This document shows, in pieces, positions 1,078-10,349 of a stretch of 10,383 bases of DNA (its first letter is position 1; every line of letters starts with the position of its first letter). Position numbers and translations under genes: made by a program. The DNA comes from a virus: UHGV virus genome UHGV-0129844; one strand, 5' to 3'. The notes under the pieces were generated by a model. The model was not told the origin of the DNA, searched no databases, and saw nothing but the letters and a program-made list of their open reading frames with translations.

Positions 1078-1153
1078 TGGTGCTGGTTAACGGACTTGAA
1101 CCGCTACCCATTCGCTTACAAGACGACTGCTCTACCATTAGAGCTAAACCAGC
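1078..1153 (-). tRNA. tRNA-like gene, 76 nt, anticodon UGU (Thr-like), encoded CCA end
   Basis: Reverse complement: GCTGGTT TA GCTC TAATGGTA GAGC A GTCGT CTTGTAA GCGAA TGGGT AGCGG TTCAAGT CCGTT AACCAGC A CCA. Hand-folded: perfect 7-bp acceptor stem, 4-bp D stem with a GG-containing D loop, T arm with TTCAAGT loop, 7-nt anticodon loop cUUGUaa. The anticodon stem has one G.A mismatch and one G.U pair. The acceptor stem GCUGGUU resembles tRNA-Thr families. Confidence 0.6.
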
Positions 1154-1158
1154 ATGTT

Positions 1159-1233
1159 TGGCGGGACAGCGTGGACTCGAACCACGATAAGAAGGTTAAC
1201 AGCCTTCCGTAATGACCTTTATACGACTGACCC
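1159..1233 (-). tRNA. tRNA-like gene, 75 nt, anticodon GUU (Asn-like), encoded CCA end; possibly degenerate
   Basis: Reverse complement: GGGTCAG TC GTAT AAAGGTCA TTAC G GAAGG CTGTTAA CCTTC TTAT CGTGG TTCGAGT CCACG CTGTCCC G CCA. Perfect 5-bp anticodon and T stems, anticodon loop cUGUUaa and T loop GGTTCGAGTCC as in tRNA-Asn. The acceptor stem has one T.T mismatch (positions 4-69) and the D stem is weak, so it may be a pseudo-tRNA. Confidence 0.5.
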
Positions 1234-2131: not shown

Positions 2132-2793
2132 GCGCCTTCTCCCTGTACCTGAATCAATGTGAGGTTTCCGCAGAACACTGCGCCGGTATCGATATACATC
2201 TGGTTGGCAAACTTGAGTGGTTTCACTGCTGGCGTATGACCAAAGATGAACGTGTCCGCGCCTTTGATTTCTTTCACGATCCCGTCTTGTGAGTTGCTGA
2301 TTCGTTCGCGGTTCCAGATTACCTGCTGATGATCAACTGGCTTTCCAAACTCGTATTCGTCACAGGGATAATCGGCGTGGCAGATGACATATTTTTTACC
2401 TTCGCTCACCAGTTCGATGATTAACGGAAGTTCATCTGCTTTATGGGCAAGAGCTTTAGCCAGAATTTCTTTGTCGTAATCGAGATTAAAGAACCAGCCA
2501 CCGCCATTAAACAGCCAGTGATTGACGTTTCCACGCTCTGATAAGCCATCAATCATCATTTGCTCATGGTTTCCACGTACAGCTCGGAACCAGGGGAATG
2601 TGATTAATTCCAGACATTCGACGTTCTCTGTACCGCGATCAACCAAATCGCCCACCGAGATAAGCAGGTCTTTTTTGGTGTCGAATCCTATCGTCTCCAG
2701 TTTTTTCATCAGGTTCGTGTAGCATCCGTGCAGATCGCCAACTACCCAAACATTTCGGTATTTGCTGCCATCAATTCTTTCGTAATAGCGCAT
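2128..2793 (-). CDS. Ser/Thr protein phosphatase (lambda orf221/NinI-like metallophosphatase), 221 aa
   Basis: From the ATG at 2793 the protein is [25 protein letters not shown]...GNHEQ..., carrying the calcineurin-like metallophosphatase motifs GDLHG, GDLVDRG and GNHE, and is close to the lambda phosphatase. The 246-aa ORF in the track starts 25 codons upstream (2868), but the lambda-like start with GGAG upstream is preferred. Confidence 0.9.
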
Positions 2794-2977
2794 CTCTTTC
2801 ACTCCATCCGCGATGAACCATGAGAACGTCGTTGACGATGGCGTGCATTTTCCCGTCTTTATCATCAACGTATTTTCTTACCGTGCCGCGACTACATTTC
2901 AGTCTGCGTGCCACTTCTGTCTGGTTTCCGTATGCTTCAACGAGCATGTCTGGAATGGTTTTTACTGAGAACGTCAT
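2771..2977 (-). CDS. ninH: NinH, 68 aa
   Basis: [37 protein letters not shown]... matches lambda NinH (orf68) from memory. It is an Fis-like helix-turn-helix protein. The ATG overlaps the ninG stop. Confidence 0.88.
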
Positions 2978-3585
2978 GCGGCCTCACTTCTGCTATTTCG
3001 CAGGTCTTTGAGTTTCTGCTGATACTCCGCCTTGATGGCCCTGCACTCTTCGACAGTCCAGCGATGGCGGCTATGGTTTGATTCGATTTCGTCTACTGCT
3101 TCCTGCCCGATGCGGCTAATAAGTTCGACGCGATACGGAACGAGATTTCCGCTTTTGTGCTGGTTGCACACCACGCATTGCTTGTGAATATTGCGTTCAT
3201 CAAATCGGAGTTGAGGTGCCGCAGCAGTTGTCCGGTAATGCCCGGCATCCCACTGAGCAGACGTGAGCGTTCCGCACGAGATACATGGTAAATTGCGGTC
3301 TCTTTCTCTGATGAAGGCGTTTACGGCTTGTTGGGCTTGTTTAATCCAGTAACTGCGGGGCTTTAAGGCGAGTTTTCGAATCTTAAGTTTATCTTTCTGT
3401 TTCTGATCCTCTCGTCGTCGTTTCTTTTCTGCTGCTTTTTCCGCTTTTTCGCGTTCTTTACTTCGTCGTTCGAGTGCTATCTTTGTTCCACACTCTGGAG
3501 AGCACCACCACTGATTAGCGAATGCAGGGTGAAACCATTCCCGACATTCTTCGTTTTTACATCGTCTTCGCGCTGGTTTAGCCAT
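2974..3585 (-). CDS. ninG: NinG / Rap recombination-associated endonuclease, 203 aa
   Basis: [47 protein letters not shown]... matches lambda NinG and carries several Cys clusters. The ATG overlaps the ninF stop. Confidence 0.92.
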
Positions 3586-3748: not shown

Positions 3749-3927
3749 CTTGTATGCCTCGCACGTTCTCTAAGCCACCGGATATCCCACAGGTGAGCCG
3801 TGTAGTTGAAGGTTTTTACGTCAGATTCTTTTGGGATTGGCTTGCGTTTATTTCTGGAGCGCTTCGTTGGAAGGTATTTGCAGTTTTCGCAGATGATGTC
3901 GGTGATACTTCGTCGCTGTCGCCTCAT
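3745..3927 (-). CDS. ninE: NinE, 60 aa
   Basis: From the internal Met of the 90-aa track ORF: [60 protein letters not shown], matching lambda NinE. The ATG (3927..3925) overlaps the methyltransferase stop as ATGA. Confidence 0.85.
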
Positions 3928-4451
3928 GCCGCCCTCCTGACGCCCTGCCCGATCGCCATCAATGCCGCTTTGGATACGGTAGTAAACATCCGTCGAGGAC
4001 TGATGAACGGTCGCCAAATCAGCAGCATGGAGCCTTTGCTGTTTCCCTTCTTCTCCAGCCCTGTCGATGGTTCGATAAAATTAATCCGTCCATCAGTGAT
4101 AATGCGAACTTCGTCGACACTCTCCAGAGCCTTGCTGAACCATCCGACTGACATATCCTCTGGCACAAGCATCACTACCGCCTGTCGCTGTTGTATGCAC
4201 TGCTCAGCGGCTTTTTCCACCCACGGTCTGATATTGCTGTAAGGTGGGTTATTCCAGATTGCACCGTAGCTTATCCACTCAGAATTGAGCGCGTCGTCGG
4301 CCTCAGTTAGCCAGTGAGCGCACAGAGCATTTTTGTCGCTCGCTGCTGAATCCAGCCAGAATCCAAACTCAATATCCAGCGCATCAAAAAGCCAAAGCGG
4401 CGTTTGCCAGCAGTCCTTGTCGTGTGCTGGCGTATTTGATTTGATAGTCAT
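3924..4451 (-). CDS. Phage Dam-like DNA N6-adenine methyltransferase, about 175 aa
   Basis: The protein contains [12 protein letters not shown] and the NPPY motif (methyltransferase motif IV), typical of the small phage N6-adenine methyltransferase family. The preferred start ATG at 4451 overlaps the ninB stop (ATGA); an alternative upstream ATG exists at 4478. Confidence 0.78.
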
Positions 4452-4894
4452 GCAGCCTTCCCTTTTCGTTGTGACCATTCATACTCTCGCCGGGAGTCAT
4501 CACTCCACCGCACGTTGCGCTCTGAGCCGAACCAGAACATGATTTCGATAAGCTCAGTCATGCTGGACTTTCGCATTTTGCTGGTACGCACGCCAAGCAT
4601 AACAACGCCACCGTCGATACCAGGCACACTTCGTTGCTCCAGTTTTTTGGTCTTAAGCCACAGGGCAGTGAACAGATCTTTCCAGTCTTCCGGCGCCAGC
4701 CGTTGACCATGCCATAGCACCTGACGCGAAACATCGTTCAGCATCGGCCACATACGGTCATTCTGCGCTTTGCTGCGTTTGGGTTCTCTAACGTGGACTT
4801 CGTGGGGTGACTTGTCGTCGATGGGTAGTGAGAGAATGGCGTCTATGGCGTTATTTCTGATTGCTTCGTTACGAAGCATGTATATTTGCTTCAT
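4448..4894 (-). CDS. ninB: NinB family recombination protein, 148 aa
   Basis: MKQIYMLRNEAIRNNAIDAILSLP...QNDRMWPMLNDVSRQVLWHGQRL...[20 protein letters not shown] resembles lambda NinB (orf146) in conserved blocks (QNR-W, DVSRQV-WHG, WSD-EW) and sits in the expected nin position. Confidence 0.82.
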   Translation of the reverse strand: MKQIYMLRNEAIRNNAIDAILSLPIDDKSPHEVHVREPKRSKAQNDRMWPMLNDVSRQVLWHGQRLAPEDWKDLFTALWLKTKKLEQRSVPGIDGGVVMLGVRTSKMRKSSMTELIEIMFWFGSERNVRWSDDSRREYEWSQRKGKAA

Positions 4895-5222
4895 CGAAAT
4901 TCTTCTCTTTAATTCCAGCGGCTCTGATAGCTTTCATCACTGCAATTACCGTTTTGTCCTTCCCATCCTCATGCCCCATCGCATAAGCACCTTCTTCACC
5001 ATCTTTCCAAAAGTCGTCATTCGATTCTGGCCAGTCGATATCCAGTTCAATAGCTGCTCGCGATGCCTGCCATAAAGTCCACCACTCATTTAAGGAGTGA
5101 CGAATATCCATGCTTGAAAATGCGAAGTACCTATCACCATTTCTTGCCTCGGTTATCATCTCGAATGGTAATCTCAATTTTTTGGCAACGTATTCCTCAA
5201 ACTGCTTTCTTGATTCGTCCAT
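4869..5222 (-). CDS. Hypothetical acidic protein, 117 aa, function unknown
   Basis: An uninterrupted ORF on the operon strand with a GAGGG motif upstream of the ATG, whose stop overlaps the ninB start by 26 bp. I do not recognise the family. Confidence 0.5.
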   Translation of the reverse strand: MDESRKQFEEYVAKKLRLPFEMITEARNGDRYFAFSSMDIRHSLNEWWTLWQASRAAIELDIDWPESNDDFWKDGEEGAYAMGHEDGKDKTVIAVMKAIRAAGIKEKNFDEANIHAS

Positions 5223-5239
5223 CGATACTTACCCTCAAT

Positions 5240-5446
5240 TCAACTAACAAAACGCCACGCCATTTTTGCTACGACAACAGGCATAACACCGATAATCACC
5301 CAGACAAATGCAGCGCCAAACAACGTATACCATGGGTCTTTACCGTCATTCACAAGACGAATGTAGCTATGCAGAACAATAAAAAACGTCAGAAGAATCC
5401 ATCCAACGCCAACGCATTTGAATGCGACGAGCATAAACTCAGCCAC
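5240..5446 (-). CDS. Hypothetical small membrane protein, 68 aa (or 64 aa from the internal ATG), two predicted transmembrane helices
   Basis: Two hydrophobic stretches (WILLTFFIVLHSYI and LFGAAFVWVIIGVMPVVVA). GGAG lies 8 nt upstream of the GTG start at 5446; an ATG follows 4 codons later. It sits directly downstream of the tR2-like terminator. Confidence 0.45.
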   Translation of the reverse strand: MAEFMLVAFKCVGVGWILLTFFIVLHSYIRLVNDGKDPWYTLFGAAFVWVIIGVMPVVVAKMAWRFVS

Positions 5447-5461
5447 GATTTACTCTCCCCC

Positions 5462-5492
5462 AAATAAAAAGACCTGCGATTACCAGCAGGCC
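5462..5492 (-). terminator. tR2-like intrinsic terminator between the replication genes and the nin region
   Basis: Minus-strand RNA: GGCCUGC (5492-5486), loop UGGUAAUC, GCAGGUC (5477-5471), giving a 7-bp stem with one G.U pair, followed by UUUUUAUUU (5470-5462). Lambda has tR2 at the same position relative to the replication genes. Confidence 0.55.
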
Positions 5493-5521
5493 TGTTATTA
5501 GCTCAGTGATGTAGATGGTCA

Positions 5522-6958
5522 TCAGAATCCTCCTTTCTTCTTGGACTGCGGTTCCTCGCGTTCACGGCGGCGCATTTCAGCAGACTGTTGGTCTGTGTCA
5601 TAAATAGCGCCATTTGCCTGAATGCAATACACCGTGCCGGTATTGCCATGACGATTGAGGCGAAGGATTAGTTCGGTTTCACCAGGTGGAACACTGTCAT
5701 CAAAAGCACCTTCACGATGGATCCCCACCCAATAATCGCAATCCTGTTCAATCTGCCCTGTATCTCGTGAGTCACTTGGCAATGGGCGTTTATTGGTTCG
5801 GCTTTCCAGTGCGCGGTTAAGCTGTGTCAGAAGCACAACAACGCAATCAAGCTCTTTGGCAAGGTTCTTCAGTCCTTTGGTGATCATGCCGTAAGCAAGG
5901 TCGTTGCGATCGGCCTTTTCAGCGGTCATTAGTGTCAGGTAATCGACCAGAATCATGCCAACACATCCTTTTTCTCGCTTGATTCGACGGCTTTCGCTGA
6001 CGATTTGAGACAGAGATAATCCCGGCGTGTCGTCGATGTAAAGCAGGTCGATTTCACTCAAGCGATTGGCTGTTTCGATCGCCCTGTTGAAGTCACCATC
6101 GTAATCACCCTGATAGCCGTCATCAGCGTCATTTGTCGCCGGAAGGTAAAAAATATTCGGGTTAACACCTGACTTCTGTCCTACCAGTTTTTCCAGTATC
6201 TGGTCACCGGGCATTTCAAGGCTGAACATCAGAGCGGGCTTTTTCTCATGCACTGCGCAGTTGATTGCCATCTGGCTGTATAGCGTCGTTTTCCCCATCT
6301 TAGGGCGAGCGCCAATGACAAACAGAGAGCCTTTCACCAGGCCTTTCGGTGACAGCATCCTGTCCAGCGATGGGATCCCTGTGCTCATTCCTCGTTGTTC
6401 GCCTGACGGGTCAAATCGCTTCTCAAGGTCGCTAACCCAGTCTTCCATGACCTCACCAAATGAGCGAAGGCCGCGACGCGATCCGGTTTTTGCATGGTCT
6501 GTCAGTTGCGTGAAAATCGACTGAATAGCTTCGTACTTCTGCGTTGCAGTCATTCCGTTGCGGGAATAGAGCAATTCCGTCGCTTCAGTCATGCGGTTGA
6601 TGGCGTAGCGTTCCATTGCGGTTTCACGAACCTGCATTGCATAGGCAACGATGTTTGCTGCGCTTGGCGTGTTCTTTGCGATCTCAGCGATATAAGCAAA
6701 ACCGCCAACAGACACCGTTAACGATTTACGCTCCAGTTCATCGAAAAGCGTCAGGCCATCTACTGGCTTTTGCTCACGGTGCATTCTGGTTATTTCTTCG
6801 AAAATGATTTTGTGTGGTCGGCTGTAAAATGAATCAGGCTTCAGCATCGCCAGGACTTTCTGGACGCGCTCACTGCTGTCATCATCCAGAAGCAATCCAC
6901 CAATCACCGCCTGCTCTGCCTCGATGCTATGGGGCGGCGCATAAAAATTATCGGTCAT
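5522..6958 (-). CDS. DnaB-family replicative DNA helicase, about 478 aa
   Basis: Walker A motif GARPKMGKTTL, a DnaB-type N-terminal domain (SIEAEQAVIGGLLLD) and C-terminal RecA-like domain, similar in layout to P22 gp12-type phage helicases. The ATG at 6958 (MTDNFYAPP...) is preferred over the GTG at 6973 that the ORF track uses. Confidence 0.9.
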   Translation of the reverse strand: MTDNFYAPPHSIEAEQAVIGGLLLDDDSSERVQKVLAMLKPDSFYSRPHKIIFEEITRMHREQKPVDGLTLFDELERKSLTVSVGGFAYIAEIAKNTPSAANIVAYAMQVRETAMERYAINRMTEATELLYSRNGMTATQKYEAIQSIFTQLTDHAKTGSRRGLRSFGEVMEDWVSDLEKRFDPSGEQRGMSTGIPSLDRMLSPKGLVKGSLFVIGARPKMGKTTLYSQMAINCAVHEKKPALMFSLEMPGDQILEKLVGQKSGVNPNIFYLPATNDADDGYQGDYDGDFNRAIETANRLSEIDLLYIDDTPGLSLSQIVSESRRIKREKGCVGMILVDYLTLMTAEKADRNDLAYGMITKGLKNLAKELDCVVVLLTQLNRALESRTNKRPLPSDSRDTGQIEQDCDYWVGIHREGAFDDSVPPGETELILRLNRHGNTGTVYCIQANGAIYDTDQQSAEMRRREREEPQSKKKGGF

Positions 6959-7847
6959 CGTGTTCACCCTCACGAACTTTCAGGTAGGTATTATCGTTAA
7001 GCAGGAAATCAAATCCCTTTTTGTGCCAGACGGTTCCGCGTTGATGGTTTGGACGCTCTTCGAACATCCATCGGCAATTTTCGCCTACGTAGCTCAAATA
7101 ATTTCTCCAGTCCTGCATCGTGAACCCATGCCCGTCAAGCTGGCGGGTTATCACTCCGGCTTTGCGCCAGAACGTTCGGATCTGGTTTTTACGCTTGTCA
7201 TTCAGTGCGCGGATTTTTGGCGCTTCAGGAAGGATTTCGTGGTAAGCATCGACAACATCCTGACAGCTAACGGAAGGTTTTTTCTTGTCAGACTTTTTGT
7301 CTGCTGTGGCACTCTCTAATACGTCAGTATTAGAGATAATATTATTATATTCTTTATCTGTGGTAATTTGCTGGTAATCTGCTGGTACAGTATTGCTTAC
7401 AGGCATTGGTATTGCTGGCTTTGAGGTGGTAATTTGCTGGTAATCTGCTGGTACAAAATTTGACTGATAATCGTCATATTTCTCTACCGAGAAAACTGAG
7501 AATTTACCGTGTGAAACCCAGTCAATCATGCCGAGTTTTTTGAACTTTCTAAGCAGGTACTGAACGCGATCTGGTTTGAGTCCTGTTTCAAACGCCAGAG
7601 AGTTTCTACCGCCAAGTAGCTTCCCTCTGCCTACCAGAATTTCTCCTGCGTCAGTCATTACATACTCAGGCGTATGCTTTGCTTTGAGGATTAAGTGAAC
7701 CCACAGATGCGCTGCTTCTGCGTCCTTGTAAAACGGCACATCCATAATTTTACGGTGCAGCAAGGCATACCCCTTACCGCTGCTTTGATGCGGTTGTTGT
7801 AGCCTTCTGGCCTCTCTGGCTTCGGCTAGATTAGATATGTTACTCAT
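6948..7847 (-). CDS. Replication initiator protein (functional analogue of lambda O / P22 gp18; not lambda O by sequence), 299 aa
   Basis: It sits where O would be, directly after cII/oop and before the helicase. The ori-type iteron repeats lie inside its coding sequence and encode the repeated peptide [11 protein letters not shown] strong AAGGAG lies 7 nt upstream of the ATG. Confidence 0.78.
7361..7455. repeat. Origin-type iterons: two identical 29-bp direct repeats with nested GCTGGTAAT/GCTGGTACA sub-repeats, flanked by an AT-rich tract
   Basis: TGGTAATTTGCTGGTAATCTGCTGGTACA occurs at 7361-7389 and again at 7427-7455. The degenerate copy GGTATTGCTGG lies between them, and the AT-rich stretch GATAATATTATTATATTCTTTATCT lies at about 7335-7359. 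Confidence 0.7.
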
Positions 7848-8728: not shown

Positions 8729-9445
<717 letters not shown>

Positions 9446-9476
9446 TTCAACGCAGCAAAAAAGGGTAATTCAATTA

Positions 9477-10349
9477 ATGGAACATGATGATTTACAGCAA
9501 TTACCATCCCCATTCGCAAAATGGAAGGGGAAGATCGACTTAGGTGGTGAAAGTATTGATTGCTATGTGCTTGACACTGGACATCGTGTTATAGCTTTGC
9601 GAGCAACTGTAAAAGCAATTGCCAATGCGGAGTCAGGAGACCTGGCTAAATTTATTGGCGTTAGCTCACTTAATGGCTTTATAGACAAAGACTTAGTCCT
9701 GGCCGAACTCATAGAGTTTTCCATACCAGGAACCCAATTTAAGAGCCAAGGACTTAAGACTGAGCAATTTGAATTGATTTGTCGCGGCTATGTACAGGCG
9801 CTATACAAAGGCGCGCCATTGACAGATAGACAGCGAGAAATAGCAATTAAATGTGCTGTATTAACAGCAGGTTTAACCAGGACTGGGTTAGATGCTCTAA
9901 TTGATGAGGCTACTGGGTATCAGTATGAGCGCGCAGAGGATGCTCTCCAAGTAAAACTCAGGGCGTTCATCGCTGAGGAACTAAGAGCATGGGAAAAAAC
10001 ATTTCCTGATGAGTTATGGGAAGAATTTGGTAGATTGACAGGATGGAGTACCCCATTGCAATCAAGGCCCAAATGGTGGGGGAAATTAGTTATAGAGTTA
10101 ATTTATGACACTCTTGACGAAGATGTGGCTAAATATCTTAAAGAAAACAAGCCTGCGGCAGGAGTTCACTGGCATAGACAGTTAACCGAGAACCTAGGTG
10201 TAAGGCAGCTTGTATCAAGGTGCTGGGAGGTTATTGGGGTCGCAAAAACATGCGACACCATGCATGAGCTAAGAAGTCGAGTTGCTCAACACTATGGAAA
10301 GAAACCTGTTCAAATGACAATGTATTTACCGGAAAAAGAAATTAAATAA
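9477..10349 (+). CDS. Hypothetical soluble protein, about 290 aa, in the position lambda uses for rexA-rexB
   Basis: The ORF is in frame from 9381, but the first ATG after the cI stop is at 9477 (MEHDDLQQLPSPFAKWKGKIDLGG...) with an AAAAGGG motif upstream. It has no long hydrophobic segments and no resemblance to RexA or RexB. It ends KEIK* directly before an intrinsic terminator. Confidence 0.7.
   Translation: MEHDDLQQLPSPFAKWKGKIDLGGESIDCYVLDTGHRVIALRATVKAIANAESGDLAKFIGVSSLNGFIDKDLVLAELIEFSIPGTQFKSQGLKTEQFELICRGYVQALYKGAPLTDRQREIAIKCAVLTAGLTRTGLDALIDEATGYQYERAEDALQVKLRAFIAEELRAWEKTFPDELWEEFGRLTGWSTPLQSRPKWWGKLVIELIYDTLDEDVAKYLKENKPAAGVHWHRQLTENLGVRQLVSRCWEVIGVAKTCDTMHELRSRVAQHYGKKPVQMTMYLPEKEIK

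Follow-up and report, generated by a model that had tools for sequence, protein, structure and literature searches.

In the phage DNA analysed here, referred to as the window (10,383 nt of virus genome UHGV-0129844), two small genes lie between the gene for a replicative helicase and ninB. They are called p68 and p117 below, after the lengths of their products. The question that they raise is whether they form a functional pair, such as a defence or toxin system, or are separate genes that merely lie side by side. We consider it likely (probability about 0.7) that p68 and p117 are accessory genes, separate from each other and non-essential, in a variable cassette slot of the lambdoid nin region. 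This slot would open immediately downstream of the ninA/tR2 element with its Shine-Dalgarno (SD) sequence, and end at ninB.

Gene order in the window

Nearly all genes in the window are on the minus strand, and represent the early-right operon of a mosaic lambdoid phage; cI is on the plus strand. Any one phage record covers 63 % of the window at most. In minus-strand order, the genes are lambda-type cro, cII, an O-like gene, the DnaB-type helicase gene, the slot, ninB, Dam, NinE, NinF, NinG and NinH, followed by a phosphatase gene, Q, two tRNAs, a holin gene and a lysozyme gene. The helicase gene is the last of the replication genes and the upstream neighbour of the slot, and ninB is the right edge of the slot. 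The helicase gene, ninA, p68, p117 and ninB are linked head to tail via overlapping or closely spaced stops and starts (Table 1). A preliminary description of the locus included both the p68 and p117 ORFs, and both are present, but the 27-aa homologue of NinA listed in Table 1 had been overlooked.

Table 1. Features in and next to the slot, with positions in the window
Feature	Position	Strand	Basis
Dam	3924-4478	-	Window gene list
ninB (Orf recombination mediator)	4448..4894	-	Pfam NinB E=1.9e-48, profile positions 1-131 of 131
p117, 117 aa, ATG start, acidic, predicted soluble protein	4869..5222	-	PHROG 343 / PF26207 (Phage_phiTE_015)
p68, 68 aa, GTG start, predicted inner-membrane helical hairpin	5240..5446	-	PHROG 1165, AlphaFold, dN/dS
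ninA homologue, 27 aa, MTIYITELITGLLVIAGLFIWGRVNRG	5439..5522	-	ORF listing; P22 NinA comparison
Shine-Dalgarno GGGGGAGAG	5453..5461	-	Side-by-side sequences of lambda, P22, H-19B and the window
tR2 intrinsic terminator	5460..5493	-	Terminator scan; 8-bp G+C-rich stem, 8-nt loop, then UUUUAUUU
DnaB-type replicative helicase	5522..6973	-	Pfam DnaB_C E=3e-60, DnaB E=1.5e-31

The ninA ORF and the tR2 terminator

The ninA ORF sits between the helicase gene and p68, and encloses the tR2 hairpin. Its ATG shares one base with the stop codon of the helicase gene (TGATG), and at the other end its TGA and the p68 start codon GTG overlap (GTGGCTGA). P22 NinA (MTIYITELVTGLLVIAGLFIWGRGKT) is annotated together with its terminator, and 23 of its 26 residues are identical in the window ORF, which is thus the NinA homologue. 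The ORF is also found in H-19B and, unannotated, in the ren-ninB interval of lambda, and an ORF of this 27-aa type is labelled ninA in the HK620 and SPN9CC records.

Some hit tables listed ninA under the match to p68. However, p68 is not NinA, because the ninA annotated in HK620 and SPN9CC overlaps the p68 gene by 8 nt only. Though p68 and P22 NinA come from the same small region, NinA is a 26-27-aa ORF that spans the terminator and p68 is not. This corrects the reading of the annotated 'ninA', which is the 27-aa terminator-containing ORF and not the 68-aa gene.

The tR2-like terminator noted in the preliminary description was confirmed. It is a hairpin followed by a U-run, folds with -13.4 kcal/mol (z=-2.6), and differs from the lambda and P22 element by one mismatch. 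The equivalent element in the HK620 record is annotated as tR2.

The slot between tR2 and ninB

Lambda and P22 have ren (or gene 12) followed by ninA/tR2 and then ninB, with ATGA junctions and an empty slot. In these two phages, TTTATTTGGGGGAGAG is the ribosome-binding site of ninB, and the same sequence precedes p68 in the window and in H-19B. Therefore, the cassette sits between the tR2/SD element and ninB. The SD sequence GGGGGAGAG, which is that of ninB in lambda and P22 and that of p68 in the window, forms the left junction of the slot, and one ribosome-binding site is shared whichever gene comes next. The window genes are placed in the operon as in the lambda/P22 nin region (ninA to ninH), downstream of the replication genes and tR2, with equally tight linkage of stops and starts and the same flanks, namely ninA/tR2 on the left and ninB, Dam, NinE, NinF, NinG, NinH and the phosphatase gene on the right. 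However, ninA is followed directly by ninB in lambda and P22, and the additional p68 and p117 cassettes have no equivalent there.

The two genes had been placed where lambda has ren. This location is not correct, as H-19B and 933W carry ren in addition to these genes (in the order P, ren, ninA/tR2 and then p68/p117-type genes), and the slot is empty in lambda and P22. What varies is the interval from the ninA/tR2 element to ninB, not the ren position. In a set of 166 related loci, one and the same module is preceded by a DnaB helicase gene in some and by lambda-type P and ren in others, and the slot module is independent of the type of replication module. Lambda Ren resembles p68 and p117 in being small, non-essential and encoded between the replication genes and ninB, but it is unrelated to them in sequence and its gene is upstream of tR2, whereas p68 and p117 are downstream. 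The window is without ren. When phmmer was used with H-19B Ren as the query, ren was found upstream of ninA elsewhere and nothing was found in the window, and p68 and p117 were rejected as candidates for Ren.

The p68 gene and protein family

Both p68 and p117 are real protein-coding genes under purifying selection. Although the preliminary description could not assign either protein to any family, both belong to catalogued ones, p68 to PHROG 1165 and p117 to PHROG 343 / PF26207. The PHROG 1165 profile matches p68 over its full length (E=1.6e-38, residues 1-68 on positions 1-68 of 68). The membrane protein with two transmembrane segments (2-TM) proposed earlier is supported by two hydrophobic stretches (Kyte-Doolittle 19-residue maxima 2.3-2.5) and by the AlphaFold model, in which helices 2-33 and 38-67 are joined by a 4-residue turn to form a hairpin (mean pLDDT 88.8). 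From the positive-inside rule, we infer that the N- and C-terminus are both cytoplasmic.

Several records, including those for HK620, H-19B, HK022 (NC_002166) and many Stx phages, do not annotate the 68-aa ORF, and it begins with GTG, as might be expected if it were an untranslated chance ORF in the spacer after the terminator. However, this explanation is highly improbable. The length is exactly 68 codons despite only 57-65 % nucleotide identity among copies, and dN/dS is 0.22-0.40, so the reading frame is not poorly conserved, which the preliminary description had named as a sign of an untranslated ORF. The alignment has fifteen invariant columns, including W16, W49, G53, P56, K61 and W64; conservation extends to the turn (VNDGKDP) and to the C-terminal helix with its tail (PVxxAKMAWRF), and 30 %-identical relatives from Serratia and Pantoea retain the motif pattern. 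A strong SD, GGGGGAGAG, is found 6 nt before the start codon, with its GGAG core 8 nt upstream. The full-length profile match and the confidently predicted hairpin also count against a chance ORF.

PHROG 1165 is a narrow family. Homologues of p68 make up only 28 clusters among 1.84 billion representatives, and the traceable ones are all from Enterobacterales. The members include 68-aa hypothetical proteins of HK620, HK022, H-19B, mEp213, Stx2 phage 86 (orf70) and P22-like Salmonella phages, and they share with the window p68 both the length and the place directly after ninA/tR2, with no notable difference. The window p68 is an ordinary member of the family, 99 % identical to its closest copies and 92.6-95.6 % identical to those of mEp213 and HK620 (95.6 % amino acid identity for HK620). 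Beyond PHROG 1165, the PHROG scan of p68 gave one weak family of unknown function only. Scans of p68 and p117 with Pfam, NCBIfam and PADLOC produced only sub-threshold matches of the 2-TM-composition type (T4SS_pilin, E=0.022; MnhG, E=0.029), and PDB sequence searches with single sequences and profiles of both proteins found nothing significant.

The p117 gene and protein family

The description of p117 as an acidic 117-aa protein was correct (pI 4.85; 24 D+E vs 16 K+R). Its start codon is preceded by a well-spaced Shine-Dalgarno sequence. The PHROG 343 profile matches p117 with E=8.5e-30, and a precomputed PF26207 assignment was found on 120 of 120 p117 homologues among the matches listed, including the 97 %-identical P0001. 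In addition, phiTE_015 matches a profile of the p117 family (E=1.9e-16), and a close copy in E. coli (locus L175, 96 % nucleotide identity) carries the PGAP label 'phiTE_015 family protein'. With hmmscan and the local Pfam-A, there was no match for p117, and the PF26207 model is apparently absent there, because six homologues with the precomputed PF26207 assignment also gave nothing.

PF26207 / PHROG 343 includes phiTE_015, Sf6 gp48 and hypothetical proteins of 933W and mEp213. Its members and p117 have in common an N-terminal signature (SRxQFExW ... WxAWQASRxxIE) and a place upstream of ninB or beside Lar-like genes. The family is mosaic, with a conserved start, MxxSRxQFExW, 20-45 hypervariable residues, the conserved WxAWQASRxxIE, a C-terminal segment that exists in several (at least three) alternative versions, and an end formed by an amphipathic helix finishing in AGIKVK(G)E. 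Relative to other members, the central and acidic C-terminal segments of p117 are one of several versions, and its last ~12 residues come from reading on into ninB out of frame. The version of the C-terminal segment in the window is the acidic DIDWPESNDDFWKDGEEGAYAMGHEDGKDK, which is conserved across genera. The AlphaFold model of p117 has a pLDDT of 71 overall and is confident only for residues 1-55, a helical N-domain (80-93), and the acidic Trp-rich C-terminal segment is predicted to be disordered although it is strongly conserved. No enzymatic signature was found in p117, fold searches with it were uninformative, and fold and profile searches of p68 and p117 yielded no function.

Genes for PF26207 proteins are found upstream of ninB in prophages of Pseudocitrobacter, Atlantibacter, Erwinia and Rahnella, and next to Lar-like genes in 933W and phiTE. 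A scan of genome contigs returned only 7 loci. Some phages have two PF26207 genes in tandem.

These features might indicate that p117 is a counter-defence or anti-restriction protein, in which the acidic Trp-rich segment inhibits a host nuclease or sensor and the hypervariable middle reflects an arms race. The acidity of the protein is in line with this, as is the strong conservation across genera of DIDWPE(S/A)NDDxWKDGEEGAYAMGHEDGKDK in a segment predicted to be disordered (dN/dS 0.1-0.3 for the C-terminal core). The hypervariable sequence lies between conserved anchor motifs, Lar-like restriction-alleviation genes and a Dam methylase gene are recurrent neighbours, and the family occurs in both temperate and lytic phages. 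However, p117 has no sequence or fold similarity to any known anti-defence protein, the acidic segment is one of at least three C-terminal versions, and an argument from neighbours is weak where most genes are uncharacterised. We regard the counter-defence role as doubtful.

The end of p117 and its overlap with ninB

The last 41 residues of P22 EaD show weak profile similarity to p117, ending in AGIKVKGE (hhalign probability 53 %, E=1.4e-4), and a p117 relative in phage Gally is annotated as 'similar to P22 EaD'. However, the likeness to P22 EaD and ead/Ea22-like proteins is limited to the C-terminus, with none elsewhere, and an NCBIfam scan for ead/Ea22-like membership of p117 gave no match. 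The codons for AGIKVK(G)E encode an AAGGAG-TGA-GC-ATG junction to the next gene, and the same junction is present at the P22 eaD/eaI boundary. The similarity to EaD is weakened by this, because the shared end also encodes the SD-TGA-GC-ATG junction and is in part a nucleotide-level linker.

In p117 genes of the window type, the AAGGAG-TGA-GC-ATG junction is replaced by the ribosome-binding site and ATG of ninB, and p117 runs on out of frame. The end of p117 overlaps the first 26 nt of ninB, and the ORF coordinates agree with the 26-bp overlap reported earlier. This overlap had been taken to suggest translational coupling. However, it does not look like an evolved coupling device and would rather be a by-product, because the p117 tail is out of frame in ninB, the position of the p117 stop differs among relatives, and the stop in the window arises from a change that is synonymous in ninB.

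Distribution and co-occurrence

The mEp213 copy of the genes is 98.6 % identical to that in the window at the nucleotide level and the H-19B copy is 96.9 % identical. Relatives of p117 are found in Sf6 (gp48), HK022 and 933W. DNA matching part of ninA-p68-p117 (4869-5522) was detected in 1881 of 5426 complete E. coli genomes, 172 of which cover at least 80 % of it.

Co-occurrence was assessed in 107 slots, anchored on tR2/ninA only. Both p68 and a PF26207 gene were present in 20, p68 only in 5, PF26207 only in 16 and neither in 66, and this variation in content bears out the earlier proposal that the interval before ninB is variable and holds accessory genes. PF26207 was present in 20 of the 25 slots that contain p68 and in 16 of the 82 that do not (odds ratio 16.5, p=6e-8), and the association decreased to an odds ratio of 4.0 (p=0.03) on dereplication, where identical slots were collapsed. 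At 67 of 87 p68 loci, p117 follows p68 after 13-18 nt. The distant p68 relatives (30-35 % identical; Serratia, Pantoea and metagenomes) are always just after replication genes. Within 1.2 kb of these, PF26207 was found at six of eight informative loci, and was immediately adjacent at two; the remaining two had none.

The association and the fixed order, which are partly kept in the 30-35 %-identical relatives, could mean that the genes are one functional module, in which a membrane protein and a soluble partner would bring about superinfection exclusion or abortive infection, or act as a toxin and its neutraliser. We consider a single module unlikely. The p68 gene is found alone in the viable phage HK620, and PF26207 alone in 933W, Sf6 and the lytic phage phiTE, and the single states account for 5 of 25 sampled p68 slots and 16 of 36 sampled PF26207 slots. 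Neighbouring genes in mosaic phages are co-inherited anyway, and both families favour the start of the nin region. Most of the distant loci have intervening genes, and two have no PF26207 nearby. An obligate pair of the toxin-antitoxin kind was rejected, as each gene is found alone (5 p68-only and 16 PF26207-only slots vs 20 with both). The preliminary description had proposed checking whether the two genes are conserved together across lambdoid prophages, and they are positively associated, but each also occurs alone and they are not an obligate pair. We therefore treat p68 and PF26207 as two separable cassettes with a shared positional preference that are often co-inherited, and see only a small chance of a functional link between them.

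Expression

No sigma-70-like promoter was found on either strand in 4300-6000 (1.7 expected by chance), in a consensus-only scan that could miss weak or non-sigma-70 promoters. Because the scan was of this type, some expression of p68 and p117 in a lysogen is conceivable. The nin genes are a delayed-early, N-antiterminated and dispensable chain of interlinked genes (PMC10695390; PMC8022706). As p68 and p117 are chained behind tR2, and by analogy with the lambda nin genes, we infer that they are expressed during lytic growth. They would be delayed-early lytic genes, transcribed only from pR via N-antiterminated read-through of tR2, and not prophage-expressed. A moron, meaning an autonomous cassette expressed from the prophage, was not supported, as the scan showed no promoter-like site belonging to the genes and their starts and stops are chained to those of their neighbours.

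Possible functions of p68 and p117

PADLOC models matched neither p68 nor p117 with any family at E up to 1, and nothing was found in the literature on either. The preliminary description had suggested an exclusion, abortive-infection or toxin pair. This proposal was not supported, as there is no PADLOC match and no promoter-like site, the genes are behind tR2, and each is found alone in viable phages. These points also count against the single module considered above. Lytic rather than prophage expression, with the genes behind tR2 probably silent in the lysogen, does not fit with exclusion or abortive infection encoded by a prophage.

Small phage membrane proteins that exclude superinfecting phages include T4 Imm, HK97 gp15 and P22 SieA, and T4 Imm is expressed early in the lytic cycle. 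Like them, p68 would be a small, phage-encoded inner-membrane protein, but this is a functional analogy only, and the PHROG scan revealed no sequence relationship. For p117, our best guess, made with low confidence, is that it binds a host or recombination protein and is not an enzyme. Binding to another protein would be its most likely activity, and its neighbours, ninB/Orf, Dam and Lar-like genes, tentatively point to a nuclease or defence factor of the host, or to a recombination factor, as the partner. We are a little less confident about p68, which may act on the inner membrane of the infected cell, where it could block the entry of DNA from a secondary phage or modulate a host membrane protein. 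It is less likely again that the p68 and PF26207 proteins work together, as a conserved module of early lytic growth encoded right after the replication genes. In that case, the hairpin would recruit the acidic protein or be regulated by it. The function, hitherto undescribed, might for example be to exclude superinfecting phages during lytic growth, to tether replication or recombination to the membrane, or to neutralise a membrane-bound defence of the host.

Significance

Both p68 and p117 are conserved hypothetical proteins that have been catalogued before and are an ordinary feature of lambdoid phages, and the window genes are ~99 % identical to the mEp213 genes. Nothing shows a new defence or toxin system in p68 and p117. 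As both families are already catalogued, the presence of these genes in the nin region is itself of little import. However, if a function were shown for either family, this would annotate a gene of many E. coli, Shigella and Salmonella prophages, including Shiga-toxin phages.

Composition of the window

In the window, the immunity genes are those of lambda but the replication genes are of a non-lambda kind. Any single phage record accounts for at most 63 % of its length. For the O-like replication gene, Pfam gave nothing beyond a weak, sub-threshold match to DUF7376. An ORF with a P63C domain lies 3′ of the lambda-type cI, at the position held in lambda by rexA/rexB. As called mechanically this ORF overlaps the end of cI, and its true start is therefore probably internal. 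Locations are listed in the table.

Features of the window and of comparison loci
Feature	Position (strand)	Details
tRNA-Thr (TGT), tRNA-Asn (GTT)	window 1078-1233 (-)	between Q and holin gene
AGIKVK(G)E junction	window 4895-4915 (-); P22 (L176) around 24906	SD/stop/start
ninA	window 5439-5522 (-); lambda (L177) 10568-10648	hydrophobic, 26-27 aa
O-like replication gene	window 6948-7847 (-)	DUF7376, sub-threshold
P63C-domain ORF	window 9381-10349 (+)	≤322 aa; P63C E=2.6e-22
Second small two-helix membrane ORF	L179 1112-1285	57 aa; metagenomic relative
PF26207 neighbourhoods with Lar-like/NinX-like genes	L303 (phiTE) 8969-10665; L167 (933W) 2399-3220; L182 2032-3035

The ninA ORF and tR2

The ninA ORF is retained in lambda, where it is unannotated, and in P22, H-19B and the window. 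It contains the entire hairpin of the tR2 terminator and shows stop-start coupling to both flanking genes. If ninA is translated, ribosomes would traverse this hairpin and could modulate termination.

PF26207 genes and their neighbours

In one metagenomic relative (L179), the 57-aa membrane ORF, a second and unrelated one, separates the p68-like gene from the PF26207 gene. Genes for Lar-like restriction-alleviation zinc-ribbon proteins and NinX-like genes recur near PF26207 genes, in a lytic myovirus and lambdoid prophages alike. Some phages, e.g. H-19B, carry a tandem pair of PF26207 copies.

The PF26207 proteins (p117, at 4869-5222 on the minus strand, and those of loci L087-L166 and L178-L182) are mosaics, with a hypervariable middle flanked by conserved anchor motifs and at least three alternative versions of the C-terminal segment. 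Many PF26207 genes have in common with P22 EaD a conserved C-terminus, AGIKVK(G)E, whose coding sequence yields AAGGAG-TGA-GC-ATG, a shared gene junction that supplies Shine-Dalgarno sequence, stop and start. This junction may serve as a recombination linker between modules.
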